From the NCBI GenBank assembly GCA_051362555.1, contig CM120644.1:24698534-24762533 (forward strand): DNA of 64,000 nucleotides. The letters are read 5' to 3'. The DNA is from Lingula anatina (Eukaryota > Animalia > Brachiopoda). Shown piece by piece: positions 4,659 to 52,140 of the stretch (positions are counted from its first letter, which is position 1; each line of letters starts with the position of its first letter). The translations under genes were made by a program, and so were the position numbers. Under the pieces are notes generated by a model, which worked only from the letters and a program-made list of their open reading frames with translations, did not search any database and was not told where the DNA came from.

Positions 4659-4842
4659 GCCTCATTCAGAACACAGGACAAACATATCTACGGATCAAAT
4701 ATGGCCGACCCACTTGAATGCTTGTTGCGTAAACCCGGCAGGAAATCTATTCAGTGTCTAATCCCGAATTAAGCAGCAAGCTTTTTAAATGAGTTGCCAT
4801 ATTTGATCCGTGGATTTGTTAGTCCACTGTTCTGAATGTGCC
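4659..4842. mobile_element. MITE family A (imperfect hairpin, GGCC..CATTCAGAA-type ends); related copies at ~3181-3419, ~21265-21445 and an end fragment at 1-36
   Basis: Ends ggcctcattcagaaca / tgttctgaatgtgcc are inverted, with ttaa on both sides; inner gatcaaatatggc / gccatatttgatc inverted; core caacccacttgaa shared between copies. Confidence 0.7.
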
Positions 4843-9153: not shown

Positions 9154-9415
9154 AGGGATGGTTCCCAGACCCTAGCATACTAACTGTGGATCGATCTATC
9201 TCCTAGGGGATTCTTGGTAAGTTGCAATCAACTTAAGCAGATTAGATGTCTGTCACGCCTACTGGAGCTGCTAGCTATGAGGGAATAAATCATCATTTAG
9301 CAGCTTCAGTAGGCGTGCCAGACATCTAAGCAGATTAAGCTGAAAGCAATTTAGTGAGAAACCCCTTGGAGATGGATCGATCCTGTTGAACTGATCTAGG
9401 TAAGGGAACCCTGTC
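9154..9415. mobile_element. Palindromic MITE related to family B
   Basis: Inverted arms (ggatcgatc...agatgtctgtcacgcctactggagctgct / agcagcttcagtaggcgtgccagacatct...gatcgatcc) sharing motifs with family B. Confidence 0.6.
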
Positions 9416-19741: not shown

Positions 19742-19777
<36 letters not shown>

Positions 19778-20039
19778 ATTATAATAGAAATGTAATTATC
19801 ATTCTCAAGATAGTTCAGTATAGGTGTTGGATGTTTAATTGTTGCTAGATCCCTCCAAACTTCAGGATGAATCAACACAGGATGTAGCAGCAGAGTTAGA
19901 GCAGGGAAAAGAAAATACAATGATGTATTTTAATTAAAATGTTGTTACTGGCGTTACTTCTCTTAATTCATCATCTCTGAGCAACAAGCAAATCTAAAGC
20001 TAAGTTTTAGTTGGAGTAACTGTAGTGAATTAAAAGTAT

Positions 20040-20085
<46 letters not shown>

Positions 20086-21974
20086 GGCAAAATGAAGGTT
20101 TTGAATTGGAGTTATTTCATATGTCTCCAAACTTTGCAAATTGGAATATCAACGAGAGAAACATGGTCTTTTGTTACAGGTTGAAAAAAAACCTGAAAAA
20201 ACTTATTCTTGACATCGGCAAGGGAAATATAAGTATTGATTGTCTCCAGAAACCAATAAGACTGCTCCAGTAGGAAGTCTTCAGAAATTGGTGATTAGTT
20301 ACATGCCCAATGCAATTGTTATCGTATTTTTAGAGTTTATGAAGTCATTTTTTATGTTGCTTAGATGAAATGTTGCTTGGTTTATGAAGCCTGAGTGGGG
20401 AAAATGGATAGTAAATGATGGTTGATTCTGTGGAGTGGATCATATTGAAGCTATTTGTCATTTGCACTTTTTTATGAAGTCGAGGCATGGTGAAAATAAG
20501 TATTTGTGATACATACAAGTGTTTCAAGCTGTTTCAGTATGCAGGTGCGTAATATTGAAGTGTTCCTGCACAAACAAAGATCACAGACACTAGAGGCAAT
20601 GTTTCTTTTTCCCATAAACATTTACCACCCATCCTAAAAACCTTAGAATTATACAAGGTGTTATCTTCTAGGTTGCTCACTTATTTAAGGGATTATCTTC
20701 TATGGTGTTTAGAAACTTTACTTTGATAGGGATGGGAGGGGGGGGGGGGTTAGATCGATGTACCTGACTTTTATAAGAGGGTCCTGGCCGCTATACCACC
20801 CAGTGGTCAGTGAGTGTCTGCATCTATTCACATCAGTCTGATGAAAGCCTACATCCAGCTTGGCCGTCAGCTAACAGTATGAAAGTTTTTCAGCTTGTTC
20901 TTCATTTATGATCCAGCTACCAAGCTAATGAACATTTTTGCTTATTATCTTCTAGGCTGAATAACTTATTAAGATCAAATCGGATGGTAAATCTCATTAA
21001 GCTATTATCTTCCAGGTTGGTTAGAACCTTTACTTGACGTCATCGCCAAAAACAAGTCCAACGTGGTGTGTCCTGTCATAGACGTCATCGAGGACGACAA
21101 CTTCAAGTATGACTTCAGCAGTGCGCGGGGGACCAGCATTGGGGGCTTTGACTGGAATCTACAGTTCAACTGGCACCCTATACCTGACCACGAGAGGAAG
21201 CGCATGAAGACGCCATTTGATCCCATCAGGTAAGTAGCGTGAGGCTTTGTGTCTAGATTTATGTAGGTCCCATTCAGAATTGGGGACTAACTAGTACGAG
21301 GGTCAAATATGGCCAACCCACTTGAATACTTCCCCATGGGTATATCTATTCAGTGTCTATTAGCGGATTAGACGCCAAGCTGTTTAGTGGGTCGCCATAT
21401 TTGACCCTTGGACTAGTTTGTCCACAGTTTGTTCTGAATACAGCCATTGAGGAAGTTTTCTGTCTGTCAAACTGATTATCTACAGAGATTTCAGCATAAT
21501 AATAATAGTAAAAATATTTGGGTCAAAATTGTTAGGACTATGCAGGTTTTCTTGATTTTCAGGCTTTACTTTGATCGTTTTCAGTCTTTTTGTTCATGCC
21601 TTGACACCAAGCTTATGTTTTCTGGATTATTAATTTTTTACAACTTTCACCCATGTTAAAATACTTATTATAATGATAGTCTTAATTGTAAGAGTTTCTA
21701 AATTATAGGAATAATAATTCAACAACTGTGAGTTTCAGTTAATAAGATAAATGAAATTACTGAAACTAAAAGAAATGGCCATCAAACCAGACAAGTTCCT
21801 GTTCTAATGTTGTAATGTTGTAGAACTGACTATGTCTATATATTTATTTACATTGCACCACATATCTTAATATCTTAACTATTTTCTTTTTATTATTATC
21901 TTTACTTATCTTATTCTGTTAATTTTACCCCTGTAAAGTCTTCTGAACATTTGTATATGGATTTAAAAATAAAG

Positions 21975-22008
<34 letters not shown>

Positions 22009-22147
22009 TACGTCCAGGTCACCCACCATGGCAGGAGGGTTGTTCTCTATCTCAAGAGAATACTTTGAATTCCTGGGTACCTACGACCCCGGAATGGACA
22101 TCTGGGGTGGAGAAAACCTGGAGCTGTCATTTAGGGTGAGATAGTAC

Positions 22148-22228
<81 letters not shown>

Positions 22229-24320
22229 AGTTGAGTGTGTGTGTGTGTGTTTGTGAGAGAAAGAAAGCTAGAGAGATTAAGAGAGAGAGAGGTGTGTGTG
22301 TTTAAACATACAAGGAGAGAACTTGGAGCTGTCATTTAGGGTGAGATAGTGTGTGTGTAAATGTGTGTGTGTGAGAGAGAGAGAGAGAGATGGGTAGTGC
22401 AAAATTTCACAAGAAGTACATTGTGTATTGCAGATGATTTAAAGAGAGACCAACTACATTTTAGTTCATTCTTCATTTATACAGCTGTGTATCTGTGACA
22501 TCCCATAAAATTCTGTGTTCATATTCTCAGATCTGGATGTGCGGCGGCACGCTGTACATCGTCCCGTGCTCACATGTAGGGCACATCTTCCGTAAACGCA
22601 GCCCATACAAGTGGAAACCAGGCGTCAATGTGGTGAAGAAGAACTCTATACGACTGGCTGAGGTCTGGATGGACGACTATAAAAACTACTACTATGAGAG
22701 GTTTAATCACGTCCTGGTAAGAAATGCTACAATTTTAAGTCTTTCAATTTTGTTATATATGACATATAAAGTTGAATTGTTTTTCAGATATCAGGAAAAA
22801 ATTACCAATAGAATTATAAATGAATTACAAATAGCCAAAAAAGGTGGTACATCTACACCATTTTAACTTTGAACAGTGGAACAATTTTTACTCATTATCA
22901 TAATAATGTTATAACATACTAACATTTTTGTGAAAATGTCAGTTCAAAAGATTGGAACATTCAAAACCAAGTTATGACCAGATATACTATGAATTAAGAA
23001 GTCTAACTATCGTTCTTTCAAATTTCCTTTAAAAAAAAAATCTACAATTTTGTAAATCCCAAGGGAAACTGGAGAAATAATGATTTTAAAATTCAAAGTT
23101 ACATCATTTCAGGGAGACTATGGAGATGTGACATCCAGGAAAGAGCTCAGAAAGCGTCTCCAGTGTAAATCATTTGACTGGTATGTCAAGAACATCTTCC
23201 CAGATCTCTTCATCCCTGGTGAAGCTGTCGCCAGTGGGGAGGTAAGATAGTCATATGGATGTGCGTGCACATACACACACACACACACACACATTTAGAA
23301 GTGCTTAAATCCACAAGCTTCACAGACAGCATTTTACTGAAAATAATTTTGTTGTGCTTTGTCTTCCCAGATTTCATTTTTGGATCATTTAAAGAGGTTT
23401 CATGAATACAAATATACATTGTGATAATAAGAGATGTTGAAAACATATGATAAAAATTAGAGTACATTCATATACACACCTGTCAGATTTATTATACAGC
23501 ATTTAAAATTTGGAATTCTTGAATTTCAAAGGAAACAGAATATTTGAAAAAGATTCAACAGCTTTTTAATGCTGATATTGTTCAGAATTTCATCTTTTTC
23601 TTTTTTTGTGTTCACAGATCCGTAACCAAGCTCAATCTCAGTGCCTTGACAGCTCAGTGGACCACAACGCCATGAACAAACCTGTCAAAATGTGGCCTTG
23701 TCACAACCAGGGAGGCAATCAGGTACTGTCACATCTAACACAATATAACAATATGTCACAACTAACACAATATTTGACTGTCACACCTAACACAATGTCA
23801 CACTTCAACCAGTAGGCCAGACTCAATATGTCATTACCAAGAAGGAAGTCAAGGTATTTGTTTTTACGTGCACTTGTTCTTTTGGGTGTGGGAGGTGTTG
23901 AACAGTGTAATTACTTCTCACATCACTTTTAAGTTCAAAGTACTGCTGGCTACTCCTGTGCCATGAAGTTCAGACAGTCATATAAATATGCTGTGGATCA
24001 ATATTTATATTACTTTCCAATGAAATACCTGTACTTTGATATAGCAGATATTATGCCTACATGTCTGTTGTTATTTTTTCCTTGCAGTACTGGATGTTAA
24101 GTAAAAACGGAGAGATCCGCCGTGACGAGGGCTGTTTTGACTTCACAGGTCAAGGTCAGGTTCAGATGTACACGTGTCATGGCCAGAAAGGAAATCAGTT
24201 CTGGGAGTATAGAGCGGTAAGCTGGGGACTGGCATTGAGGATTTTTCATGGTACTGTATGTGTGCATTTGTGTGTATGTGTGCGTTTGTGTGTGTACAGT
24301 ATATATTTGTGTGTGTGTGT

Positions 24321-24366
<46 letters not shown>

Positions 24367-24560
24367 ACATGCGTGCATAAGTTAGGGGTTGGAATTGAGT
24401 AACTCTGTTGGAATTGAATACTTTTGAGAGTACTGCGTTTGTGTGTGTGGGGGGGGGGGTGGAGGGAGTTTGTAAGGTGATTATATAACAGCTGTTGGAA
24501 TATAGAGAGGTAAGCTAGGGGTTGCATTTGAGTACTTCTGAGAGGAGAGTGAGTGTGTGT

Positions 24561-24591
<31 letters not shown>

Positions 24592-25032
24592 GGCAGATGT
24601 ACAGTGTTTTATTAACCAGCTGTTAGGATGGTTAACTAGTCTATAGAAACAATCACCTAGGACAATTATTTATTAACAGTATCACACTTAACATATTTAA
24701 ACACTGTCACACCTAACACAATATTGTCAGATCTAACTCAATATAACACTGTCACACCTAACACAATATTGCCAAATCTAACTCAATATAACACTGTCAC
24801 ACCTAACACAATATTGTCAGATCTAACTCGATATAACATTGTCACATCTAACCCAATATTGTCACAGCTTACACAATATCACACTGTTGTTTTCCAGGAT
24901 GGTCATCTGATGCATGTGAACAGCCAGAGATGTATGGAGCTGTCTGGTGACGGTCAGTCCATCCTGATGGAGCCATGCGGTAATAAAATACGCCAACTGT
25001 GGCTGTGGAAGAGAAAAGACGGCAGCTCATAG
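14455..25032 (+). CDS. GALNT: Polypeptide N-acetylgalactosaminyltransferase (GT27, pgant9/gly-5-like), 11 coding exons, ~629 aa
   Basis: Exons 14455-14842, 15125-15278, 15603-15769, 18635-18799, 21016-21229, 22018-22135, 22531-22716, 23113-23241, 23618-23722, 24088-24216, 24898-25032. All introns GT-AG with matching phases; total 1890 nt. Type II TM anchor, [23 protein letters not shown] metal motif (LDSHCEC), [30 protein letters not shown], ricin lectin repeats ([20 protein letters not shown]). Subfamily call is from recalled similarity. Confidence 0.96.
15799..16056. mobile_element. Near-perfect fold-back MITE (Tourist/PIF-Harbinger-like), TTA target-site duplication
   Basis: Arms of ~120 bp are exact reverse complements (ggcttcattcacatgcaatg... 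/ ...cattgcatgtgaatgaagcc); TTA at 15796-15798 and 16057-16059. Confidence 0.9.
18953..19167. mobile_element. MITE family B copy in GALNT intron 4
   Basis: Highly similar to 7455-7678 and 56526-56751; inverted tagatcgatcta subterminal motifs. Confidence 0.75.
20788..20926 (+). mobile_element. Partial copy of the hairpin element with hammerhead-like core (see 33625-33808)
   Basis: gctataccacccagtggtcagtgagtgt...cagtctgatgaaagcctacatccagcttggccgtcagctaacagtatgaaa matches the 33.7 kb copy; its 3' end (catttatgatccagctaccaagct) is nearly the reverse complement of that copy's 5' end. Confidence 0.65.
24701..24886. repeat. 45-bp minisatellite (~4 copies) abutting the last GALNT acceptor; related units at 23724-23802
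   Basis: Unit acactgtcacacctaacacaatattgtcagatctaactcaatata starts at 24701, 24746, 24791, 24836. Confidence 0.85.
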
Positions 25033-30221: not shown

Positions 30222-31396
30222 ATGAAGGTCGCTCTCACACTGTGCGTATTGTGCGCGTTTCTGGCGGTGACAACAACAGAGGCCAGTGAAGATACGCTGA
30301 AGAGTCTCCTGATGAAACTCCTGGATGACAGTAAGTGGAGGTCGCCCGAGTGGTTTTTATTTTGCTCATCTTGATTTTTTTTCTCAATTTCCTTACATGG
30401 TTTGTAATGAGATGTAAGTATAAAATTAATGCAGTTTGGTGGCGTGTGATGAATACATCTCTCACCTTTTTTTTTTTTTTTTTTGTTTTTCGCTTCGTAG
30501 AATCTCATCTGAATTTCACTTGTTAAAATGTATCTAAGCTATAAATCTTTTTTACAATACTTATACCTAAAAAAAAAGCACTAGTTGCTTTAAGGGATCT
30601 GCATTCCGATGAGCACCCAAAGATTCTTACAAAGTTCTCAAAGAATGTTTGATTGGAGATAGGTTTGTTGTTTTTGTCTGAAAAAAGAAATAACATAAGC
30701 AGTATATTATTTTTTGTTGAAGAATGAATTAGAACACGAAGCACTGTTCCTTTGATAGGGCTTGTGAGAAAGAATTAATTTCTCTTACAAAAGATACCAT
30801 TGGATGTCATACAGATTGAGTGAACTTTTTGCACTTCTTTACTAAAATATCATCATTTTTCTAACTTTTAGACACTGAGGAGGAGACGCAGGAGGAGGAA
30901 TCGAATGACAACTACGAGGACGAGGAGGAACAGTTGCTGACAGATCTGAAAGGTAGGAATTCACAAATTTGTTCAACCTGTGGACACTTATTTGGCTATT
31001 TGGCATAAAATGAAATTTTAAATTGACTTTTGAAGGTTGGGAATCGAGTGTGTGTTTAATAACTGTTTCATGACCGTTCAATGCAGTTCTGATGTCCCTA
31101 AATTCCAGCAGTGAATTTGAGAATCGAACCTGAGATTTGCGTATTGCGTGAAATAGGATAATTTACAAAAATAAGTTATCCAAAACGAACAAAGACCGAA
31201 CAGAAATGATTGGCGCATAGAAATTTCATTCATATAGCGATCATTTGTGACTCTTCAGCAACTCTAGGAATTTTTTCCATTCCGTAATTATAATAAATCG
31301 TGCGTTCATTCGGACGCTATTTTGTTTAGACAAAAACACAAAATCGAGAGAATAAGAAATACAAAAAATGTTTTCAAAGTCCTATGTATGCTTTTT

Positions 31397-31432
<36 letters not shown>

Positions 31433-32326
31433 ACTGAACAAGACTTGTCCACAACTTCAGACCGATTCACACACATGTGGTGTTGACTTCAATATTTCTT
31501 TCCCTCAGATGATCTGATGAACCTGGAAGCGTTCCGAAAATGCCAAAAATGCACCAAGACGAAGACGATGACCAAGACGCTGCAGTGCACTGTCTCTGAG
31601 TCACAAAAAGACGAGGAGGGCTTCTCACCGTGTAGAAACAGCGTTCTCACATTTAGTAAGTATCGCGATTTCATAGTTTTGTTTCTTTCTTTCTTTCTGT
31701 ATTTCTTTATTGTTTAGTTTGTTTGTTTGTTTGTTTCTTTTGTTGTTTTCTGTTCATCGAATCTGATTTTTGTTCTATCGGAATATTTATTATGATCTTT
31801 CTTTTTCACATATTTTACATTAATTCGCATGTTTGTAATTTTTCTATTTTTGTTGGCGCTTGATATCTTAAAAAAGGCACCCTCTTCCGCTTTAACAAAA
31901 CGCAGTTGAATTCGTATCTTATGATTTGTTACATGTGAATCATCGTTATTCAATATTCTCTTCATCATTCTTTTGTTTGACCTAATTGCAATGTGGTAAC
32001 AGTTGCCATGTCTATTCCATTCTTTTCTATCTCTGTCTAGTTTTGTTCCATCCAGTTTCATTATCAGTACTGTTCTATTTAATTTCATTATGTACAATAT
32101 TATATTGAAGACCTATACATATCCCGACTGTAGTATTGGCAGGGTAACATTAACGAGACGCTGTTTGTATTCAGGGGGACAGAGATACGAGAGCTGCCAG
32201 AGAAAGGGAGGACGCTGCAGCGGCCGTATCAAGCTGTGTGAGTCCCTGCGCTGTGTGAAGGCGGCGGACTGTTCCAGTGAAGTCCAGTGTGTCGTCTACA
32301 CGAGAGACTGCGAGTGGATCTGCTAG
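30222..32326 (+). CDS. Secreted cysteine-rich precursor A (signal + acidic pro-region + 12-Cys domain), ~162 aa
   Basis: Exons 30222-30330, 30872-30952, 31509-31655, 32175-32326; three phase-1 GT-AG introns; 489 nt. MKVALTLCVLCAFLAVTTTEA-SEDTLKSLLMKLLDDNTEEETQEEESNDNYEDEEEQLLTDLKDDLMNLEAFRKCQKCTKTKTMTKTLQCTVSESQKDEEGFSPCRNSVLTFRGQRYESCQRKGGRCSGRIKLCESLRCVKAADCSSEVQCVVYTRDCEWIC*. Paralogous to the next two genes. Confidence 0.88.
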
Positions 32327-33624
32327 AGACAGCCATGCTTTACGACGCCTCGTATTACTAGTGTGTTTGACACTATAATATTGTCTTAAAGCTAAAAAGA
32401 ACTTTTTTCATTTTAAAGCCAACTGCTTGTGCACTGGTGTTTGAGAAATAGTTTGAACGTACGATAGGCAGATCTAGTTTTGCTTAGGGAATCGATTTGA
32501 TACGAAGCCACACATTATTATAACTTGCTATTTCGCTTCAACCTGAAAAAAATTTGAAATTCTATATGCCCTACTGAAATACAAGGCAGAACGTGCAGTA
32601 GGCATATCCAGTTTTATGACATTTCAAGAAAATGTGATAGCCTTTGAATAATTCTTTCAAAAGTTTGATACAAGTCACCAGGATTATTCTGACGAGCAAC
32701 AGCCATGATGGAAATAGACGGTGTGCCATTGTCTTCTCTTGCGTAATTTAATTTGAAACTTTGACTTAGTTTTCTTATTGACATCAGAGATTCGGTTGAT
32801 GTTATTTTTACATCAGTTTTTTACTTTATGTAAAAGCAGCACATAAAATGTGATATATATTGAAATCATCAATTACCTCGTAGTGAAGGGACTATATTGT
32901 CTCTGTTGTTCTAATTACAGCAATAGCCTCAAAGTTTTATTCACAGATTGTGGCATTATCGATATATATAGTATGTTTTGTATTTCGAATCCTAATGGCG
33001 CATATTAGTTGCTACAATGTAGCCTGTTTTTAGATGCAATATTTTTTTACGAATGATAATGCATCTTGGATTATTTTATTAATTGTGCTATATTGTAGTC
33101 GGGCATAAACATTAACAAAATATTTGCAGGTAGTTACGGCAGTATTGTACTAGCAATACCACTCCCTTGCCTGTTTTCACAATGCACACTGAAAGTTTTG
33201 ATATCGTGAAGTAATCGCTGGATTGCAGTACAGTATATTCTGTCCTCCTGCTGATCGTGGACAGCTATACTGGTGCTTTACAGACAACATTTACCAAATA
33301 TCCAAAGTGAGAATTAAATCTGTCATTAGTGTTACACTCTCCCAGATGCTGTAACATGTTGTGAATATCAAGACACATTAGAGACAGAAATAAAATGCAT
33401 TGAGTGCTATAAGGTGTCAGACATTTTGTTTTATGTTCTTCAACATCTATTCGTCAAGGTGAAAAAACATCATGGTTGACCTCCGTCTAATTAAAGTATT
33501 CGTTTACAAAAGTCCATCAACAACGTACGTGACCAAAGAAATTTTACCAAAGTTTCTAAATGCTGCTCGTTAAAAAAACCATTCCGCAACAAGTCAGAGA
33601 GTAAATGTGCAAAAAAATGTTCAT

Positions 33625-33808
33625 AAGCTTTGTAGTTGGATCATAAATGAAAATTATCAAACACAAACCAAAAAGCGTTTATACCGTTAGCTATACCACC
33701 TAGCGGTCAGTGAGTGTGAACACGTCAGTCTGATGAAGGCCTACGTCCAGGTTGGCCGTAAGCTAACGGTATGAAAATATTCCGGCTTGTGTTTGATAAT
33801 TTTCATTT
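33625..33808 (+). mobile_element. Fold-back repeat with a degenerate hammerhead-ribozyme-like core
   Basis: Inverted arms aaatgaaaattatcaaacacaa / ttgtgtttgataattttcattt and ataccgttagc / gctaacggtat enclose CTGATGA-A-GGCC-(12 nt)-GGCC-GTAA. Confidence 0.55.
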
Positions 33809-34755
33809 TTAAAGTTTGAGACTAGTTCAGTATATATTCTCACTGGGCAGGTCAACGTCGACGCTAAGGAGACTGAACGTTGATGAGCTAAAAGTCCAGT
33901 AACAGATCACATAAGCTTTATTCATGTAAAGTTTCATAAACTGAAGGTCCAGTAATAGCTTAGATAAACTTACTTAGCGTAGGGTTTAATTAACTAAAAG
34001 TCCAATGAGAAAATCTTTAAACTTCAGTCTTGTAGAATACGACTGGGAGATTTATTTATACAGTCATATGTACACATACTGTCGACGAGGAAAAAATTGG
34101 GAGGGGTTTTGCTCCAAGATTTGGAAGATTTTTTGCAAAACGTAGTAAGAGGAATGTAAGAAAAATAAATCGATATTGTAGTCCATGTTCAGAGAGGGAT
34201 AATTTTTCAACGAGCGAAAGAGTCTAAATGCTTTTTTTAAATCTTTCTATGTCATTGTCACATATGTATCACGAGGGACAAAAATAGAATAGTCCAATAA
34301 AACAATTAAGAACTCTAAAAATGCACGTTTTGGACCCCCCCCCCCCCTCTCGTAAAAGGATTAATCTTTGGAGATGAAGGCATCGTATGTCTCGTTTTCC
34401 CTGTCGCTAAATCGTAACTAATCGCAGGCAGCTACTAGTTGGCTTCCAAGTCACAAACTGACATTAATTTCAGGAGGATATATTTACATATCAAATCCAC
34501 CTTGTATACAATATCCCACCAGACAACCATTCAGGTACTCGCTAATTGCTCTTATATCTCCATTTACCTGCCTGGCTGTGTGGAATTGAATGGAGAATGG
34601 ACGAGATGTCTGGCGTACAGAAAGACATCCAGATTTATGGGGTACCCTAAATGGCTGATAAATGATTGGGTGGGTAGTTTTTCAGATTTTTTTTATTTTA
34701 CTTTTTTTGAAAGTACATTGTGATTCACATTAAGTTTAAGGCCCGAATACAGATT

Positions 34756-34786
<31 letters not shown>

Positions 34787-35185
34787 TGTCGCGCAAAATC
34801 TGTGTTAGGTTGAATTAATCTTGACCTGACGTAAATGATCATATAAACAGTGGCTACCAGCCAGTCTGGTGTAAGTAATGACCGGTCCCTATGTGCCAAA
34901 GTGGCATAAATAATAACTGGTCCCTTCCAGAGTCAACTTGACATAGACCAGGGCCGATCCCTGACATTCAGTCTGATATGATATTCAAGTGGCACCTTCA
35001 TTTATGCAACAGTTACTGCCTGCACCTGTGAAGACTTTGCCATAGTTCCAAAGCACTATTTTCGAAACCATTACCCTCTCCCCTCTCATTAAAAAACACA
35101 TTAAATACCTCCCGGCATTTTATTTAATTAAACGCGCTGTATCACAAACACGTAAGGTGTCAGCGGTTAACTACTTATCCCCTAC

Positions 35186-35191
35186 TATAAA
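35186..35191 (+). promoter_or_regulatory. Candidate TATA box of cysteine-rich gene B
   Basis: TATAAA ~120 nt upstream of the ATG, with an Inr-like TCACT ~25 nt downstream. Confidence 0.5.
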
Positions 35192-35307
35192 CTGGGAACG
35201 CTAGCGTCGTTCACTCCGTCACGCACACCTCTGCCCGCGTCTTGGTGTCTCGTTTCTTAATTAACGGTATCATCACTGTTTGTGTCGTCTTAACCGTTGT
35301 CTCCGCC

Positions 35308-37245
35308 ATGAGGATCGCCCTGCTCTTGTGTATGTTGTGTGCTGTCGTCTCCACCACCAGCGCTGGCGACAGGGAAAATACGTTAAAGAAGCTCCTGTTG
35401 CGTCTTCTAGACGGTGAGTTGAAGGACTATTTTTCAAAATACTGTCTTGTTTTTAAGTATGTGATCATGAGAAACACACTGTACCAGACTGTCTGGCAGA
35501 CATAATAAATAGTCCTTATGTGTCAGTTTAGCATTAAAATGATTGTTTAACTGGTCACAGTCAGGCGAGATAAGATGGATGTTAAAATGTATTCTTACAA
35601 GAGCGTGCTATTTTTTCATAAAGCACTAAAGCTAGAGTACAAATATAGAAATAAATAAATATTCATACAAACGGTCTTTTGAGTTTAAATAAAAGATCAA
35701 TCGTCATCCTTCCCTCAACAGAAGAAACAGACAAAAGTTCTGAACATTCGAAAACAGAGGAGAAAGACGACGTTAAAGAAGAGGAAGAGATAGACGACCA
35801 TGATGAAGACCTGACTCTGAGAGGTAAATAATACAATTCTCCAGCATAATGCCATTGCTTCTTTACATAAAATACAGAAGGGATATATAACTTTTGGATT
35901 CGTTGTTGTTAATTAACACATAGTTTAAGTTTCCCGGCGTCTCCCTGCTTGCTGGTCATTGCAGAAGCCACTTTTGAATACATACACATACACTGGACAA
36001 TACTGTATATTGAACGGATAACAACTCTTCGAATGATATACATATTTCACAATAAATACATTGCAAACAACTCATAGATATGAAGTTTTTTACCACGACA
36101 ACGGCGGTTATCACAATTATTTTGGAATTTCTGATTGCCATCTTACCACGTGACTTCCATAGTTGGCTACCCTCTGTATTTATCTTTTAAGAGATTATAA
36201 CAAAAAGAAAACTTTGAATGTCGGAACGGATTCAGTAACCATTAGTAATTATGGCAAAATTGTTATTTACCCCAGGAGAGTCAATTTTTGGCCAAAATAA
36301 AGTCGTTATCCATTTAATCACACTGTCTTTTATTTGCCTCTCCCCAGGACTGATCGGGCTAGAGGAGTACCTGAAGTGCCACAAGTGTGAAAAGAAAGAC
36401 ATCCACACCCGACCTCTGTACTGCAGAGTCAGCGAGAAGAACGTTGAGAGCGGAGAGTTTGAAGTGTGCGAAGTTAGCCAGCGGATTATACACAGTAAGT
36501 TAGCCAGCGGATTATACACAGTAAGTTAGCCAGCGGATTATGCACAGTAAGTTAGCCAACGGATTATGCACAGTAAGTTAGCCAGCGGATTATACACAGT
36601 AAGTTAGACAGCGGATTATGCACAGTAAGTTAGCCAACGGATTATGCACAGTAAGTTAGCCAGCGGATTATACACAGTAAGTTAGCCAGCGGATTATGCA
36701 CAGTAAGTTAGCCAGCGGATTATGCACAATAAGTTAGCCAGCGGATTATACACAGTAGGTTAGCCAGCGAATTATACACAGTAAGTTATCCAGCGGATTA
36801 TACACAGTAAGTTAGCCAACGGATTATACACTGTAAGTTAGCACACATAATACATGCAGTCCACGTCACATTAAATACATACTGGTGTTAGACATGATGA
36901 CTGTCAGTCAGAAAACAAAATACCTCAGATTTTTTGGTCCTGGTCATGGTATCTTGGTCTTTTTTTGGTGTGCTGATGTTCTGATGTTAAAACTAAACAA
37001 TTTGTTCGTGTATTTGTTTTTATATAACAGTATGATTGTTCCATCGATTGAAAATAGGTTAATTAGAATATTAATCATTTTTCTCTTCAGGCGGTCAAAG
37101 ATTCCAAAATTGCAAACGCAAGGAAGGCAGCAAATGCACAGGTGAAGTGAAGGAATGTGAGTCGAAGAGATGCGTGCTCACTTCCGGTTGTAATGGACCA
37201 ATCACGTGCGAGGTGTACACCAAGAAATGTCACAAAGTCTGCTAA
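35308..37245 (+). CDS. Secreted cysteine-rich precursor B (12 Cys), ~169 aa
   Basis: Exons 35308-35413, 35722-35823, 36348-36494, 37091-37245; phase-1 introns as in gene A; 510 nt. MRIALLLCMLCAVVSTTSA-GDRENTLKKLLLRLLDEETDKSSEHSKTEEKDDVKEEEEIDDHDEDLTLRGLIGLEEYLKCHKCEKKDIHTRPLYCRVSEKNVESGEFEVCEVSQRIIHSGQRFQNCKRKEGSKCTGEVKECESKRCVLTSGCNGPITCEVYTKKCHKVC*. Kozak-like gccATG; AATAAA at 37449. Confidence 0.88.
36471..36842 (+). repeat. 26-bp tandem repeat (14 full copies + partial) spanning the exon 3 / intron 3 junction of gene B
   Basis: Unit aagttagccagcggattat(a/g)cacagt, period 26, counted directly. Confidence 0.95.
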
Positions 37246-39718
37246 AAACGCTGTCTAAAGAAGAAGAAAGATTGTCGCACTTTGTTCTTTTACAGATCTA
37301 AGAATACACTTGACTAAATCTTGACTGATTATGTCATATCAACTTGTAGGACATGAAAATGCTGGATTCCTTACACAAAACTATAAATGATATTGGCGCC
37401 AATTGGAAGTGCTTTACAGTGGCTATTGGAAAAGGAATCGTTCCTAATAATAAAGTAGATCAAAATATTTTAAAACATGTCCTTTTATGGGTAATTATTT
37501 TTACTGCCAGCTTCCTATAGAGGAACATAGAACTAATTGTAGAATTCCATGCCTTTGCTGGCAATGATGTTCTGGTTCGGGAATATAGAAGAAGGAACTG
37601 AATTTTCAGCAAGCTTTTGTTGTTTAGATAAACAGTTTTTATTTGTAAGTTTTAGATGTTAAGAAACTTGAAGTCAACTTACAAAATGACTTAATTCCCG
37701 TTTCTGTAGGGATGCTCGTGAACCGTGGTGTAATGGTAACACACAAATCGACTCCTCGCAAAGTCCCCCAAAACTGCAAACGCAGTTAGAGAACCAGTTT
37801 CGATTCAGAAATCTGACATTTGTTAGGACGCTAGTCTACTGTAGAAGATACAGCTTTCATTAAAGATAGAAAATTTAACATGTGCTTTGTAATGCATTTC
37901 TTTCTTTTTTTTCTTTTTGTTATCATCTACCCAAGATGTTGAGTTCACTGTAAATTTTTCAACAGCAGTCTACCTGAAATGGGCGTCAATCACATGATAT
38001 GATCCATGCCACTTCTGTCTGCCAGAAGAAAAATAATTGTCTACAAACTATTAGCGTAGGTGCATTGATGATCTCAGTGTCTTTACAGTTCAGCTGTTGT
38101 CTTAAACCGTGGCACATAAATCTACCAGAATTAGCTTTTTAAAGCAAAACAAAACAATTGAACTCCCTCTACCAGCAGACAAACTGTCACCTGAAAACCA
38201 GAACACATAAAACTGTCACATTCACAGTGATTTCTTGTCAACGATTGTAAGACAGGAGTAAAGTAATTAGGACAAAATGCTAATTCCCGGGGTTTATTTA
38301 TAACGTTTATTTCACAGTGGGTGTTAATTCACTAAGGAGTGGAACCGTGGTTTGGTATTAGTTCAGCGTGGTAGACGAGAACAGGTGACGCGGAAAGTGA
38401 CACCAAGGACATTGGCGAGGACAACGACAATGTGCCATGATGGCTAAATGAACGTTATGCGTGTTTGTGTTTGTGTCTGTGTAGGGGGTGGGGTATTAAG
38501 TGGTCTGGCATACCGAGGACAGCCTACGCGCGTTCCAGTCAATATTACCACCCGGTGAAGTATGCAGGTGTGGGAGGGAGGGAGGGGAGGTGCTGGGGGG
38601 GGGGGGAGTTCACTCAGTCCACTCAGTAAATGATTAAACGTGCAGGCGGATTCATGCTGTAATGACAACAACAACATCAAAACATTTTAATTTTAATTCA
38701 ATTAAAATTGTTTTACCTAACAATAGCGATTTCTCAATACCAGAGAATACAAGAGCCAGAGGTATAAACTGCAGAGTAAAATTTAAAGTAGATACTTTCC
38801 CATCTAATAAATCTCATGGACTCGACACCAGTGTAGTTACGTGTGCCACCCCGACGCATTAATTACTGAAACTGATCTCCATGTAATTACAGTCCAACCA
38901 CAAGTCAAAGTTTTCAAGATATTTCCATACCGCTACTAATAGACTCAATGGTTAACGCTCAGCAACACCCCAAGAACCACGTTGCCAGAATCCATGGTGC
39001 TTCACAGCAGCTTGTCTCATGGTCCGAGTAAGCTCACGTTATCGTTTCCTTCTCCTTTATGTTTTAAAGTAAATGTCTTTTATATAAACGTTGGGCCGTG
39101 TATGTGTTGTCATATATCAGATAAATCTTTTCAGTTTGTTGACGGCCAGGATATAAACGGAGGGAGGGGGGGTCTCTTTTGCCGAGTCTGTCTATTGCTC
39201 AGACGCCAAAGAGAGTTCCAAAACGGTTCTTCATATTTGATTGACTCGCATGAGATTTCAAGATACACTGACTGACTTTACAAATCGCCCGTTTCTTCAG
39301 TAAACCGAGGATAAAAGGAATCTTGAATCCATAACCCTGAAAAGTCAGTACATTAATCGTATCAAGATAATGTGACAAACACTAGTAAATGTTAGCTCAA
39401 AGACTCAATGCTCGCGCACCTTTGAAGCGGTTTCCTGTGGTGACCCTGTTTGGCCACAGAATCTGCTAGCAGTCTGTTACAAAATTCTATACATTTTTAG
39501 AGGCACATGAGATATCAGATGGTGTTCTGTTTACATGACCCGCAATAACACAGAACTGGCGGTGACACAATGATTTGATATCACCCGTATACCACTGGCT
39601 TAATTTAGATGTAACCATAGAAGACAGTTAGTATCTCTTTCTCTTTCTGTCTCTCTTATTTCTGTTTGCGTGTATTTCATTGTGTGTGTGTGCGTGCACG
39701 CGTGCATGTGTGTGTGTT

Positions 39719-39758
<40 letters not shown>

Positions 39759-40170
39759 GGGGAGGCAGGGTTAGGCGTCTCATTACGCCCCTGGATAAAT
39801 TCCACCGATTAAAATGTTTGCTCCACTTTGAAGTACACGTTACAAAACATTTGCAGCCATCATTTGCCTATAAATGTGTCCCTAATGGATATATATAAGG
39901 ACATGGATGTCTCTTAAACCACCGACCAGTGTGCTTGCATAAAATTAGACCAGAAACGCCTCCATATATTAAACCACCCCTCACTGGTGACACTAAGGGG
40001 TACAGAAATCTTCTTAACCAGACCGTCTAGCGTCTCACATTGAGTCAGTCGTGTGTATCCACGCGGAGGAGCAAACGTCTTCACCAAAACTCTACTCGTA
40101 CACCTTCCTTCCGCTGCCACATTCACTTAAAGAGGGAGGGACGCCGTCTTCATCAGACGCCAGGAGAAGC

Positions 40171-43101
40171 ATGAAGCCTGTCGTGGGGATATTGATCTTG
40201 CTGTGCGCCGCTCTGGGGGTGGTGAACTGCTCTGCAGACGACACCAGAGAGAAACGCAGCTCTTTCACTAACATCCTCGACGTGTTAAAAAGAATTCTGT
40301 ATGATGACGACAGCGATGATGATGGTAACGGTAGCTTTGTTTTTAGGTCGCTTTTGCACTTCTTCTTCTTGATTAACAAAGAATTGTGAATTTATTGTGA
40401 ATTCCTTCTCTATAATAATGTAGGCAAATAACAAAAAATTGTAACACTCATGTTAAGAAACATATTTTGTGTATCAATATTTTAGTTAATGAGTAGGGTT
40501 ATACAAGAAGATACAGCTATACCTCATTCGTGTGGATTGTAGAACAAAACAGACTGTAAATTTCCTAAAAAGTATAAGAATCCTCGTCTTTTCAATTGCG
40601 TTATTACTTAAAAATATATACAATAATGACAAAAATTAATTTGTAGACCAAACCGAAGATAGTTTTGACGACGAAGGCGACAATGACGTCAAAGAAGAGG
40701 ATAAAGAAAACTGGGAAAAATACTTAGAAAAACTAGGTACGAATGGTTATTGTGTGTGGTGCATTCCTCAACACCAAAAACTTATTTGTGAGTTCTTGTT
40801 ATTCAGAAACCAACATGATAATGGTTGTTTCTCTGTCTGTAGAGAGACATTATACGGTCTCGGTTATTAACTGTGACATTCCAGTCACCCAATGTACGTC
40901 TGAGGTATGTAATGGATAAGTAGGTCAAGGAGAAGTGTGGAAGAGTTTGTGTGTAGCCAGGGGTATTTGTATGTATGTGTTTGCGCGTGTTCGCATGTGC
41001 GTGTGTGTGCTTCTGTTTATATGTTCACGTGTGTGCGTGTGTGTACTTGTATTTGTGTGTTCGCGTGTGTGCATGGGTGTGTGTTTATGTATGTGTGCGT
41101 GTTGGGGGATATGGGCTGACAGGTAAACAGTTAAAGTATATATAATAGCATGCAAATACTTTTTTCAGTTATAAAATATTCCTGTGGCTTTATAATGTTA
41201 TTATGTCCTTCAGAAAATAATGAAAAATAATGCACCTCGATAGAGCCCCTGTTTTATGCATATCTTAATTAGTATTTTCATTAATACTTTCATTCTCTTT
41301 TCTTTCTTTGTCTTCATCTTTATGGAAAAAATATGTAGTTGATTAAAACATTTCAGGAAAATGTGAGAACTGCACCAGTACATCCCATCGTTGGATAGTT
41401 ACCTGCGGCAAAAGGTAAAGAACAATATGCACTACATCTCTACTAAACTATGGTCACAGTGCAAATTTTGAAGCTATAGATGTTTTTACAAGATGGCCGC
41501 CAATAGCCATAACAGCCATACAAGTTCTTTCCAGCTATATATGTTTTACTAAAATATTAAAATATTTCACTTTTAGGTAAGACTTTTGGTATATAACATG
41601 TCAGAGTGGTTTCCGATAAACTTAGTGGCATGTTTAAGGCAGACTTTGCCCAGTTTCATCAACTCTGAACAGCGCTATCTTCTGGATGACAGTATCCATT
41701 GGATGGAATTGCTGTCCTCTGAGCAATTATCCTGTGCGTTAAGTAACGTTTACTTAACACTAGAAACTTATTTTTGTCTCTGGTACTGCTTTCCATAGGT
41801 TAAAAAAGATTGCTGTCCCCCGGATAATTTTCCAGAGGATAACAATTTTATCTAAAGGCCAGTGTTAGCAATAGGATAGCGCTATCCCATATTGATAAAA
41901 CTGGGCCCGAGAGTTTTATCCAAGATGGCCGCAAATGCCCATTCTAGAGTATACCTATGATACCGGACCACACCCTCCTTGTTAAACAATATAAAGCTTT
42001 AAATTTTGCGTACAACTTCAATGTTAAAATCTAAGTCAACAAAATATCTGGAATTTATGATTAGCTCTAAATCATGCTTGAAAATTTTAATGCATCAATA
42101 TTGAAGACAACTGTAGTGGATCGTTATTTAACTGAGTGTTGGGTGTCATTTAGGATTTATCATAAAACTTTAATATGATGTTTAAATAGTAAATGTTTGC
42201 AAATAAATCAATATGTAGCGTAAATTTGTGATGAGGCATTGGCATGGGACAGGTCATATATGCTGAAGTGGAATTGGCGGCCATTTTGAATTGTCACGTT
42301 TCTCATGCATAGCTTCCATGGGACTTATAGTGTGTTGATAAGGGGCCTTCACGTAAATACATGGCGAATAATAAATTATCTTGCAATTTTGTCCAAGTGA
42401 AACCTTGACTTGCCTGGGTATATTCCACATTTGTGAAATATCGGACTGGATAAATGTAGTTTCTTTTACCAGCCATATCCCTCAATGCTATTGGCAACAT
42501 ATATTTATGATCATAAGTAAGTACATAGAACTCTAGATCATTTTATGTAGACATTGTTAGCTCATGTAAATCATAAGTACCATCACAGGGGCGGATCCAT
42601 ATATTATTGAGAGCCTTCCCAATTATCTTGTTGACCCATCCTCCATTTTTGACCGAGTTCCAACTCACGTTGAATTATTTGATAATCAATGTAGATAAGT
42701 TCAGGACTTAATTTGAGTAAATTCAATTCGTCCAATCTCTGAAAGGTCTTCAGATCCGACGGACTGGGACAATAAAACTACTGAACTACATATAGCTCTT
42801 AATTAAGACAAATTGGCTATCGGCTATTTAAAAATTCAAAACATCTTTAAAGATCGTGATCTTATTGTGATATGTTCATGTTTTTACCAATTCCAGGAGC
42901 ACGGCCAAAAAAGGGAAGTACGAAGTGTGCGGTTACATCCAGGGATCTCGGAAATTTTACTCTATAAAACAGTTGGAAGGAGAGTGTTTCAACGGCGGAA
43001 CATATGAGTTGTGTGCTGTGAACAGGTGCATGAAATTAAAGGGCTGCTACGGTAGGTTTGAGCTTCTTTACTGGAAGACCACCTGCAGGAACCAGTGTTA
43101 A
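40171..43101 (+). CDS. Secreted cysteine-rich precursor C (divergent paralog, 10 Cys), ~168 aa
   Basis: Exons 40171-40324, 40647-40736, 41357-41414, 42897-43101; phases 1,1,2; 507 nt. MKPVVGILILLCAALGVVNCSADDTREKRSSFTNILDVLKRILYDDDSDDDDQTEDSFDDEGDNDVKEEDKENWEKYLEKLGKCENCTSTSHRWIVTCGKRSTAKKGKYEVCGYIQGSRKFYSIKQLEGECFNGGTYELCAVNRCMKLKGCYGRFELLYWKTTCRNQC*. AATAAA at 43339. Confidence 0.8.
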
Positions 43102-47039: not shown

Positions 47040-48310
47040 TTACCTGTGTGCTTTTGACTAAATCAAGTTATTTAGCAGGACACAAGTACAAAATTCATAT
47101 TTTAATCCATTTTTTAATGCAGAAATAGGGAAATATGGAAAATTTGCTATTTGGTTGATGCCATCTTGGATTGTGAATTTTAAAATTTGCATATTTTTTA
47201 AATGTTTGAAAAAAGATTTTTTTAGATATTAAATCAAAACATTCACTTTTAATGTATGACAATATTAGGTGTCTTTGGCCAGTCTATGAAAAATTTGAAA
47301 ATGGCAAAATTTTGGCATTTTAGCTAAAATTTGAAATTTTGGAAATCTGCCATTTTTAGAGTTGTTTTTCTAATTTTTTAGGACTTTTTAAAATATAGAG
47401 TAATATGCTTTTGACTAAATCAAGATATAATATTTAGCAGGATACAAAAATGAAATGTGTGTTTTTATCCATGCTTGTTTAGTTTACAGCAGAAATAGGG
47501 ACATTTTGCCATTTGATTGCCGCCATCTTGGATTAAGAATTTTAAAATTTGAATAATTTTTTGAAAAATGTGTTTGAAAAAAAAATTATTTTTGATTAAA
47601 ACAGTTCAGTATATGTACTTCCTTATATTATGTATGTCGATAATAGGTGGCTTTGGCCAGTTTGTTAAAAGTGTATTTGAAAATGGCAAATTTGGGCATT
47701 TTAGCAAAATTTTGAATTTTTGAAAATTCCCCATTTTCAAAGTTATTTTTTTAATTTTAAAAGGCCAGCAAAAAATAATATTTTTAATGTTTTTCACTTA
47801 ATCAAGATTTGGGATTTAGCAACATACCAATATAAAATAGGTGTTTAACCATGTTTGTTATTTTTAATATACACAAATATGTAAAATGTGCAATTTGGTT
47901 GCTGCCATCTTGGATTAAGAATTTTAAAAATTGAATAATTTTTTGAAAAATGTGTTTGAAAAAAAATTTATTTTTGATTATATAAGGACAGTACATGTAC
48001 TTTCTTATGTAATGTATGGTGATAATAGATGGCTTTGGCCAGTCTATGAAAAATGTATTTGAAATTTGCAAATTTTGGCATTTTAGCAAAAATTGGAATT
48101 TTTGAAAATTCCCCATTTTCAAAGTTATTTTTCTAATTTTTAAGGGCCACCAAAAACATTTATTTATATGTTTTTAGTTCAAATAGGATATGATATTTAA
48201 CAATGTCTGAAAATGAAAAATGTTTATTTATCCACATTTATGTTTTTTTTAGCTCAAATATAGCTGAAATTGAAATTTTGCAATCTGGATTCCGCCATCT
48301 TGGGTGAAAA
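47040..48310. repeat. Degenerate subterminal tandem repeat (~360-390 bp period, ~3.5 copies) inside the TIR element
   Basis: gccatcttgg recurs at ~47160, 47522, 47904, 48294, with recurring ctttggccagt and gcattttagc blocks. Confidence 0.8.
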
Positions 48311-48607
48311 ATTTTAAGTGCTGTTACCATGGCAACCGAGGGTGATTCAAACAAACCAATATCCATTATGTTGGTTTGGGGCTATAATGAACAAATACAC
48401 CAATTTTCATCAAAATCTGAGAGGGTCATGTGCCACCCTATTCTGAACCTTACAGAGACTGCTACTTAATTTCTAAAATATTTTTTTTCAGAAACCCCAT
48501 AAACGCGTTTGCTTTCAATCACTATGTCCTAGCTAGTATCCCTCCCTCTCACGACCCCTCCCTCTTGTGGTCCTGGTGAATCTTAGCTGAATCTCCATGT
48601 TTAGCAA

Positions 48608-48883: not shown

Positions 48884-51094
48884 TCACAGAGCAATATACT
48901 TATACGTGGATATTTTTCCTCCCGCGGTTCCAACAACAAGCTCCCAGTTACTGTTGACAGCGACTGATATAGGAAGTTCAATGTTGTCACTCTTTGTCAA
49001 AATATTACGTAGAAATCTTCCGTCTGAACCAAGCACAACTACTCTGTCATTACCACGGTCAGCTATGAATATGTGTCCAAACATATCTACGCACACTCCA
49101 TCTGGATTACTCAGTTGTCCGTCTTCACTTCCACTCTGACCTCGTGCTCCGTATTGGAACATGACGTCACCCTGGGGTGTCACTGCATACACACAGTGGG
49201 TCCTGCAGTCGCTGACTATGACTGCATTGATGTCGTGGTGGTATGCACAGAGCAGTGGACCTATACTGCACATTGGGATAGGAATTCTGTTAACAAGTTT
49301 AAAAGATATCACGTCGTACACACAGATGCACTGTGCACCACTATCACACACGTACGCCTTACCCTCTGTACGGTCGACAGTGACACCCCAGGGGTCAGAC
49401 ATATCACCCTGACCAAAACATTGGATACCCTGACCTGATGTTGAATACAGTCCACAGCATTTATCATGGCATGTGACCACGAACCTATCATTACTGACTG
49501 TAGTGACACATATCGCTTTACCCTGTATACGGATCGCACGAATACATTCGCACGTATCAGAGAATATGGACACTGTAAAACCAAAACGTAAATTACCATG
49601 TAAAACTAAAGTACAACCGTCATCTGTGCAGTGGATATGCCCGGGCCAGCCCGCAACCATAATACAATAATTTAGCTCTGGTGTTTCAAGCCATGTGACC
49701 TTCTGAAATACCATTAGCTCGGAGCAGTGCGCCCTCTCTTGTTTCAAACTTCCAAAATATGCATCCAAGGGACCCCGGTGTGTTTTGGCCGTAAAAGACC
49801 CCGTTTTGATCGACAGCTGTGGTTCAGGAATTTCAGGAAACTGCAGCAGAACGTCCAGTTTTGTTTTCCCTGGTGTAAATGTTATGTTGGTGATATTAGT
49901 ATCAAAGACTGGTTCTAAGAGCTGCAATTTTGGGATTCTACTTTGGAGTTTTTTAGAGTGGGTCATGACCTCAATGTCAGAACCGTTGTCTGTTAGCTGA
50001 CGAGCGAAATCACGAATGCTTTGAATGGCAATTTTGTTCATTTCTTGCTTGTCCTTTTCAGCTTCCAAAGTCTTCACCTGCGTGGAGGTGAGTGCCATAA
50101 CTTCTGCCGTTATTTCGTTGCTTTTGTCATCTATAACTTTCTGCATTTCGATGTAATCCGACTGCACTTTTGTTTGATACGTTTTCAAATGTAGTTTTAC
50201 ACTCCTTAAATACGCGTCGGTCTGTTGACGTACGTCTTTCTCTACTTGTTGATAACAATTGTTGAGTTCTCTTTCTATAGTTTTGCTGTTTTCCTTTATC
50301 TCCTTTGTCATAGCCAATTTCTGACAATCCACCAAACAAAGAACCTTTCTCTGATTTTCTGTCAGCCTCTCTTCCGTTCGTCCAATGGCATTCTCCGCCT
50401 TCTCAAAACGAGACAGTTTCTCAGTAGGGAGACATTTTAGCTTCTCTTGTATTAGATCTCGTTGAACTTTCACCACATCCCCTAACTCTTTGAAATCGTG
50501 TTTGCTGTGGACTTTTACAATACATTCCCTGCATATAACAGTGTCATCGTTTTCACAATAGAATGCCAGCGGTTCTCCGTCGTGTTTGTCGCAGTATTGA
50601 GCTGTATCTAATACGTGACGTAACTGATCTCGCATGTTAGCTGGGTTAACGCAGAAATCGACTTGTGACAGAGGTACTAAGGAGTGGCCCTTGCAAAACG
50701 GTATTTTGTCGTGAATATCACGGCATGTAGCGCACAATTGGTTGGTTTCTGGACAACCTTGGCACAAGAAGGTAGCCTCTTTATGGTTACAATACTCACA
50801 AAGTCTCCCCTCGGGCGTTTTCGGGCCTTTTATGAAGTCTGTTACTTTCCTTAAGAAGAAATTTTTCACAAGGGTTTCTAACCCACCTGGTGGTACGGAG
50901 GCCTCTTGGCGACACACGGGACAGGAGAACTTGTTCTGGACACCATTCTTGGCTGCATGATCGGCAATGCATTCCAGACAGAACGTGTGGTAACAGGGGA
51001 GCACTCTCGGGTCTTTATATTCCTCCAGACATATATGACAAGTTAAAAAGTTCTCACTGAAGATGTTGTACATCTCTTTCGAAGCCATTGCCAT
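48884..51094 (-). CDS. Intronless TRIM-NHL E3 ubiquitin ligase (RING, two B-boxes, coiled coil, NHL repeats; TRIM2/3/56/71-like), ~736 aa
   Basis: C3HC4 RING CHIC..PCYHTFCLEC..CPVC; B-box1 CEYC..CQGC..CATC..H..H; B-box2 CDKH..C..CREC..H..H; NHL repeats (PWGVTVD, LSNPDGVCVD..GHIFIADRGNDRV). First ATG at 51094 (alternative 51088); the ORF-track start at 51148 is GTG. Confidence 0.93.
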   Translation of the reverse strand: MAMASKEMYNIFSENFLTCHICLEEYKDPRVLPCYHTFCLECIADHAAKNGVQNKFSCPVCRQEASVPPGGLETLVKNFFLRKVTDFIKGPKTPEGRLCEYCNHKEATFLCQGCPETNQLCATCRDIHDKIPFCKGHSLVPLSQVDFCVNPANMRDQLRHVLDTAQYCDKHDGEPLAFYCENDDTVICRECIVKVHSKHDFKELGDVVKVQRDLIQEKLKCLPTEKLSRFEKAENAIGRTEERLTENQRKVLCLVDCQKLAMTKEIKENSKTIERELNNCYQQVEKDVRQQTDAYLRSVKLHLKTYQTKVQSDYIEMQKVIDDKSNEITAEVMALTSTQVKTLEAEKDKQEMNKIAIQSIRDFARQLTDNGSDIEVMTHSKKLQSRIPKLQLLEPVFDTNITNITFTPGKTKLDVLLQFPEIPEPQLSIKTGSFTAKTHRGPLDAYFGSLKQERAHCSELMVFQKVTWLETPELNYCIMVAGWPGHIHCTDDGCTLVLHGNLRFGFTVSIFSDTCECIRAIRIQGKAICVTTVSNDRFVVTCHDKCCGLYSTSGQGIQCFGQGDMSDPWGVTVDRTEGKAYVCDSGAQCICVYDVISFKLVNRIPIPMCSIGPLLCAYHHDINAVIVSDCRTHCVYAVTPQGDVMFQYGARGQSGSEDGQLSNPDGVCVDMFGHIFIADRGNDRVVVLGSDGRFLRNILTKSDNIELPISVAVNSNWELVVGTAGGKISTYKYIAL

Positions 51095-51180
51095 AGTATA
51101 GGCGCCCAGAGTGGGCACAGCGCCCCGCCCCCTACACGGCGACCGCACCGCTCTACTGCTGCCAAAGCCGTTGCGTACGC

Positions 51181-51188
51181 TTTATATA
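51181..51188 (-). promoter_or_regulatory. Candidate TATA box of the TRIM gene
   Basis: TATATAAA on the minus strand ~90 nt upstream of the ATG. Confidence 0.5.
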
Positions 51189-51892
51189 TCATTTAATAAG
51201 TTATCTATACCACTTCAAAGTTGTCACCCGATCGACACATCACAATCAGGTGATGTTGTCAATAAGCAGGACGATATCAAAGTCCAAAGTCTGTACTAGC
51301 TGAGTGCTTGACATATCAGTGATACACTGTGAGGGTGACATGTCCCCCCCCCCTCCCCCGTATATCCCCTGGTGTTATAGTGCTGAGGCTTTGACAATAG
51401 GTTACGAAATACGGGGCGACAGCTGAATTGGAGTTGAAGTTGTCAGTTAGAATAGATGAGATATATCAGAATAGATGAGATATATCGTAGCACATGTATA
51501 TCGAAGGCTAAGGTTCGAGGCTTATATTTAATTAAACACTGAGACAGAAAGGAGAAGGAGTCTGGGCTGTATGTGTATCTTTGTTAAGTATCGGAGCCTT
51601 GTTTACACAAGAATGTACTTTCTATGATAAATTAAACTTGGTTGAAATGAAGATCGAATTCAGCCCCTAGCTTCTATACACCGAACCATTGCTGTGATAC
51701 ATGTATTAAAGCCCCCCCCCCCCCCCACTTCACACAGACAGCCCCGCTATACTGCTGCCAAGGACTTTAAGTACGTGTATATATCGTTTAGTAGGTTATC
51801 TAAAGTAGGACCTGCTTTAAAGTTGTCACCGATCGATACACAACAATCAGGTGATGTTGTCAATAACCAGGACGGTATCAAAGTCTATCAGC

Positions 51893-52140
51893 AGCCATGT
51901 ACGAGAAAGAAAGCAATAGTATTACTGCCTGTCGCAAACCCCGTGGAAGGTTTACCGTACCAGTATTTATTATCTGACCATTATGGTTTAATCTGACATA
52001 TACGGGCTTGCTGTTGTGGCTGAGACTATGGTAATGGAAGACGTAGACCCCTGAGGTCGGGGAGGTGAATTTCCTGGTGTCTTTATTATAACCGTTGCCA
52101 TCGTGCAGAAAGACGGTGTCGTAGACAACCACGGCGTTAC
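51893..52140 (-). pseudogene. C1q-domain remnant
   Basis: VVYDTVFLHDGNGYNKDTRKFTSPTSGVYVFHYH..VYVRLNHNG is a typical gC1q signature; after a frameshift comes FATGSNTIAFFLVHG, then stops; C-terminal strand motif absent. Confidence 0.75.

Follow-up and report, generated by a model that had tools for sequence, protein, structure and literature searches.

Which kind of protein is encoded by three neighbouring genes between positions 30,222 and 43,101 of a 64,000-nucleotide stretch of the genome of the brachiopod Lingula anatina (GCA_051362555.1, contig CM120644.1, positions 24,698,534 to 24,762,533 of the forward strand; hereafter the window), and what might these proteins do? An initial annotation of this DNA had proposed a tandem cluster of secreted precursors with an unrecognised 12-cysteine scaffold. 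We find that the three genes, here called A, B and C, form a real and expressed orphan family that has not been described so far and whose cysteine framework is new. Its general kind is known, namely a presumably secreted precursor that is rich in cysteines and carries an acidic region ahead of them. "Orphan" here means orphan within the collections that were searched. Defence effectors of brachiopods are almost unstudied, and A-C are a verified expressed family whose cysteine framework is absent from the libraries searched.

Gene structure and expression

The description of three same-strand genes with four coding exons each is borne out by open frames, GT..AG introns and junction reads at all nine introns. 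Gene A spans 30222-32326 (162 amino acids), gene B 35308-37245 (169 amino acids) and gene C 40171-43101 (168 amino acids), all on the plus strand and with unbroken frames. Their coding exons are the following:

30222..30330, plus strand: gene A exon 1, hydrophobic signal-like peptide and leucine-rich helix; supported by reads
30872..30952, plus strand: gene A exon 2, acidic region; supported by reads
31509..31655, plus strand: gene A exon 3, short helix and Cys1-Cys4; supported by reads
32175..32326, plus strand: gene A exon 4, Cys5-Cys12 and stop; supported by reads
35308..35413, plus strand: gene B exon 1, signal-like peptide and leucine-rich helix; supported by reads
35722..35823, plus strand: gene B exon 2, acidic region; supported by reads
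36348..36494, plus strand: gene B exon 3, short helix and Cys1-Cys4; supported by reads
37091..37245, plus strand: gene B exon 4, Cys5-Cys12 and stop; supported by reads
40171..40324, plus strand: gene C exon 1, signal-like peptide, R-x-K-R (residues 26-29), amphipathic helix and beginning of the acidic region
40647..40736, plus strand: gene C exon 2, acidic region and short helix; supported by reads
41357..41414, plus strand: gene C exon 3, first three cysteines, phase-2 intron at its end; supported by reads
42897..43101, plus strand: gene C exon 4, other seven cysteines and stop; supported by reads

In A and B all three introns are in phase 1. Gene C has phases 1,1,2, and its third intron is placed earlier, between Cys3 and Cys4 instead of between Cys4 and Cys5. 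At the start of exon 2 of gene A, one extra Glu codon is present in the RNA reads crossing the first junction as well as in the RefSeq protein, and reads extend the 3' untranslated region of this gene to about 33.4 kb. A candidate additional exon of gene C (40843-40904) was ruled out, since it breaks the frame and is skipped by the reads. A six-frame profile search of the 64,000-nucleotide window revealed no fourth family member.

RNA reads were mapped to the window from eight of nine RNA runs (X1-X8); 6-26% of each run was read, and the likeness cut-offs were not uniform across runs (88 and 93). Spliced reads over the predicted junctions, which the initial annotation had named as a check of its models, were present at all nine introns and on the expected strand in runs X4 and X5. 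Nearly all of these reads came from one strand, which is consistent with plus-strand transcripts in a usual stranded library. Per intron, X4 yielded 12, 11 and 16 junction reads for A, 60, 84 and 124 for B and 23, 17 and 27 for C, and X5 yielded 52, 43 and 57, 85, 122 and 175, and 61, 49 and 72, respectively. In X7 and X1, one or two reads were found at a few junctions, and no junction reads for A, B or C were among those listed for the portions of X2, X3, X6 and X8 that were read. A, B and C are co-expressed, in a minority of the RNA runs. As X6 carries the same study code as X4 and X5 but is silent, this pattern suggests that their expression is restricted by tissue, stage or condition; alternatively, the silent runs may stem from a more divergent population.

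A tandem array overlaps the end of exon 3 of gene B, from which it grew out:

36471..36842, plus strand: 14 copies of a 26-base pair (bp) unit, beginning inside gene B exon 3; 12 donor-like sites

The first donor is used almost always (119+5 reads in X4 and 175 in X5), and six reads were found at 36754.

Cysteine framework, paralogy and protein anatomy

The 12-cysteine scaffold described for all three genes holds for A and B. The gaps between consecutive cysteines are 2,11,14,14,6,6,4,5,5,6,3 in the domain of A and 2,11,14,15,7,6,4,5,5,6,3 in that of B, so that the fourth gap, previously given as x15/16, has to be corrected to x14/15. The domain of C has only ten cysteines (gaps 2,10,13,18,8,4,5,12,3), Cys5 and Cys10 being missing. 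The domains were then aligned and compared with 2000 shuffles in which the cysteines were held in place and the other residues permuted. The A-B alignment scored 208, the shuffle maximum being 109, and the real score was reached by 0/2000 shuffles for A-B, 5/2000 for A-C and 0/2000 for B-C. By this measure, A, B and C are paralogues beyond chance, and their likeness does not come from the cysteines alone. Domain identity amounts to 28-41%, or 20-32% without the cysteines, and on these alignments the paralogues are old and far apart.

All three N-termini are hydrophobic (7-residue hydropathy of about 3), and the products are likely secreted by way of a predicted signal peptide. After the hydrophobic stretch come a helix-like segment rich in leucine, an acidic region (net charge -16 in A, -10 in B and -16 in C), a short segment in which L, E and K are invariant ahead of Cys1, and a basic cysteine-rich domain (+7, +5 and +11) that ends on Cys in each protein. 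The proposed layout of a signal-like peptide, an acidic part and a domain of about 90 amino acids is thus found, with cleavage of a propeptide as its conjectural part. In the comparison of the three proteins, no dibasic site is kept between the acidic region and the domain, and it is for this reason that a propeptide function of the acidic region is something we infer. A furin-type R-x-K-R occurs in C only, at residues 26-29, N-terminal of the acidic region.

Variation within the species

The RefSeq counterparts are uncharacterized Lingula anatina proteins, namely LOC106178321 (A) and LOC106178319 (C), found with a profile of the last exons, and LOC106171949 (B), found by cluster look-up. Over the helix and cysteine domain, 96/96 residues are identical in A, 96/98 in B and 93/93 in C; over the first 21 residues, 20, 19 and 16 are identical, respectively. 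Differences between reads and window were listed for 40 positions per run, with 336 (X4) and 126 (X5) more beyond these. Among those listed, at least 7 (X4) and at least 12 (X5) fall into coding exons; of the listed differences in domain codons, six of seven are silent and one changes a residue, and of those in signal and acidic codons, four distinct ones change residues and five are silent. This near-identity and the mostly silent differences indicate that the domain is under ordinary constraint, and the earlier description of it as hypervariable is not supported within the species. Nor is the signal region clearly better conserved than the domain among the paralogues (43% versus 41% for A-B, 45% versus 28% for A-C, 25% versus 28% for B-C).

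LOC106178321 (A) and LOC106178319 (C) are placed together on a contig of 566 kb, and LOC106171949 (B) on another, of 516 kb. In the window B lies between A and C, unlike in RefSeq, which could reflect an assembly difference, a haplotig or a further copy.

Searches for relatives

A HMMER search over 1.84 billion representatives gave three matches at E 0.001. Two were the family's own counterparts, and the third, a repeat protein aligned over 24 positions, was dismissed as noise. Word-index searches among proteins of near length returned only the RefSeq counterparts, and among longer proteins, where such a search is weak evidence, nothing. Pfam scans of exons and whole proteins revealed no family at its cut-off; the I68, Toxin_30, Roughex and FAM176 models were dismissed as lying under the cut-off or on the acidic part. 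One PDB sequence search gave no match, and a seryl-tRNA synthetase (E 0.18) from the PDB was not considered credible. The ESM Atlas feature search gave no match, structure matches from this atlas were set aside as they come from low-confidence models, and a viral fold library contained nothing at E 0.001 or better. Macin, big defensin, Kunitz and Kazal folds were not among the fold-search matches listed, although such a listing does not exclude them. As far as HMMER, Pfam, PDB and the ESM Atlas reach, the proposal of a lineage-restricted, likely secreted cysteine-rich family without a described match is therefore supported.

Topic searches of titles, abstracts and PMC7203481 gave no account of the family. 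No identifier or motif of A-C was found in the supplements of PMC4595640 and PMC13121700, which were searched without a positive control, or in that of PMC13425148. The six LOC and XP identifiers occurred in no full text searched. The study by Gerdol et al. 2018 (PMID 29278680) reportedly covers the immune genes of Lingula and may already list A-C, which could lower their novelty.

Predicted fold and comparison with known systems

The domain is predicted to consist of a short helix and a jelly-roll, a beta-sandwich of 90 residues that loosely resembles resistin, an antibacterial protein of mammals. For both structure models the best Foldseek match was resistin/RELM (mouse resistin 1RFX and 1RGX, RELM-beta 1RH7), with a template modelling (TM) score below 0.5, and we tentatively assign a resistin/H-lectin-type fold to A-C. 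The nested disulfides Cys1-Cys12 and Cys2-Cys11, together with Cys5-Cys10, are predicted to close the sandwich; Cys5 and Cys10, the predicted pair, are lost together in C.

Resistin consists of a helical stalk and a six-stranded jelly-roll head and trimerises (PMC8253364). A-C would, as predicted, share with resistin/RELM the signal peptide, a variable middle part and a helix followed by a cationic, disulfide-rich beta-sandwich head, but they have 12 or 10 cysteines in another spacing, an acidic insert of 45-55 residues and only 7-13% identity. The RELM signature C-X11-C-X8-C-X-C-X3-C-X10-C-X-C-X-C-X9-CC is given as invariant (PMC7251035), and the coding sequence of RELM genes is divided into three exons at homologous positions (PMC4467842). 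CC and CxC are absent from all three domains, only C-x11-C being in common, in A and B, and the reads confirm four coding exons in each gene. Thus, A-C are not members of the RELM family. No resistin model or entry appeared in the Pfam scans or PDB sequence searches with E up to 10, where filters drop weak matches. In PMC4467842, the RELM family is described only from lobe-finned vertebrates. The likeness of A-C to resistin is more likely one of shared fold than of shared descent.

A small sandwich of this type also forms the trimeric glycan-binding tips of H-type lectins and phage fibres (PMC6116203, PMC11377244). No sequence or profile match to H-type lectins (Helix pomatia agglutinin, SLL-2, the discoidin C-terminal domain) was listed, and A-C differ from these in having far more cysteines and an acidic N-terminal region. 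The cysteine/histidine-rich C-terminal modules of PCSK9 are repeated within a large protein, whereas A-C have a single head in a small precursor (5% identity).

Conotoxin precursors combine a conserved signal sequence with a hypervariable mature region, a pattern that A-C do not show. With the anionic-propiece precursors of alpha-defensins, RegIII and conotoxins they share the signal, the acidic or pro region, the basic cysteine-rich domain and the tandem cluster, but their domain is much larger and they lack a conserved dibasic site and allelic hypervariability. Of the analogy to conotoxins and defensins drawn initially, the signal-acidic-basic layout remains; the domain is conserved between alleles, the signal is not specially conserved, and a 90-residue beta-sandwich is predicted rather than a small knotted peptide.

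Proposed role and alternatives

Taken together, the cationic predicted head, the opposite charge of the region ahead of it and the on/off expression make secreted surface-binding defence proteins, with an acidic part that masks the cationic head, the likeliest reading, although we give it somewhat less than an even chance. The co-expressed spliced paralogues would yield secreted precursors with an acidic region ahead of the basic cysteine-rich domain, whose head would be a short helix and a disulfide-closed, resistin-like jelly-roll. By analogy, the helix might drive trimerisation and the acidic region might mask the charge of the head until cut or displaced. The basic domain would likely attach to anionic surfaces of microbes as part of a defence of epithelia or mucus, and membrane or glycan binding could, again by analogy, kill or clump the microbes. 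RELM heads bind anionic lipids and form pores (PMC8253364), and RegIII and alpha-defensins are activated when their pro-segment is removed (PMC7251035). A bolder version, which we consider improbable, would make A-C the first lophotrochozoan resistin/RELM-like proteins, either as remote homologues or by independent invention. Their heads would be trimeric jelly-rolls, locked by disulfides, that permeabilise the membranes of bacteria, and an acidic pro-region, absent from vertebrate RELMs, would keep these heads inactive.

A-C could instead be trimeric glycan binders resembling H-type lectins, which recognise or agglutinate cells and do not attack membranes. This is unlikely: identities are only 4-10%, no H-lectin model was listed in the Pfam scans, and as the paralogues are only 20-32% alike outside the cysteines, no conserved sugar site is apparent. 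It is also unlikely that they are secreted signalling proteins, such as a hormone, a pheromone or a ligand on the gamete surface, that act through a receptor, with the acidic region serving sorting or storage. The strong conservation of the domain between alleles, the on/off expression, the few copies, the R-x-K-R site in C and the fact that resistin is also a receptor ligand (PMC8253364) would fit such a role, but A and B have no conserved processing site and the Pfam, PDB sequence and fold searches gave no match to a hormone or cystine-knot family.

Structural or matrix proteins of mucus, burrow lining, pedicle cuticle, chaetae, egg coat or shell, with a calcium-binding acidic part and a polymerising head, are likewise an unlikely explanation. 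None of four accessions was found in the supplement of the Lingula shell proteome of 97 proteins (PMC13425148), where a control accession occurred 10 times; as this proteome is shallow and covers the shell only, a shell matrix role is mildly disfavoured. Furthermore, the even cysteine numbers of A and B presumably leave none obviously free for cross-links. Conotoxin-like toxins against predators or competitors are very improbable. The signal, acidic spacer, cysteine-rich C-terminus and tandem arrangement would agree with them, as would matches, under the cut-off, to the Pfam models of Ptu toxin (E 0.29-5.7) and I68 inhibitor (E 0.006), but allelic hypervariability and a specially conserved signal sequence are missing and a 90-residue beta-sandwich is predicted. 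Lingula is, moreover, a filter feeder for which, to our knowledge, no venom system has been described.

Should the predicted fold be true, A-C would represent an invertebrate counterpart of resistin/RELM, which PMC4467842 traces to lobe-finned vertebrates only. They would then permit a direct test of whether the small jelly-roll is ancient or has arisen repeatedly as a scaffold of antimicrobial proteins or lectins. In the case of remote homology to RELM, the resistin fold in animal defence would date back to early bilaterians; if the fold is not true, they are one more of the many orphan secreted families of marine invertebrates.

Neighbouring genes and other features of the window

The TRIM and C1q genes noted initially as neighbours are both present downstream of A-C, but at a distance of at least 5.8 kb and on the opposite strand, and they lend little support to a function. 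Adjacency to these and to a GalNAc-transferase-like gene is weak evidence in this respect. The neighbouring genes are:

14443-25032, plus strand: polypeptide GalNAc-transferase-like multi-exon gene upstream of A-C, with glycosyltransferase-2 and ricin-type lectin pieces
48884-51181, minus strand: TRIM gene in a single open reading frame, with RING, B-box, coiled coil and NHL repeats; about 736 amino acids from the first Met
51881-52171, minus strand: part of a C1q domain (Pfam E 1e-9)
63998-63354 and 57828-57256, minus strand: second TRIM-NHL copy, split by a gap of about 5.5 kb; 62-73% identical

The second TRIM-NHL copy is likely a paralogue broken by an insertion. A 119-bp duplication is found at both ends of its gap (57830-57948 and 63233-63351).

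Between gene C and the TRIM gene, at 47049-48317, lies an AT-rich array in which a unit of 360 bp is repeated about three times in degenerate form. A 260-bp self-complementary stretch (97.7%) at 15798-16057 is probably a small inverted-repeat element, and shorter self-complementary stretches occur at 9188-9383 and 4654-4846.
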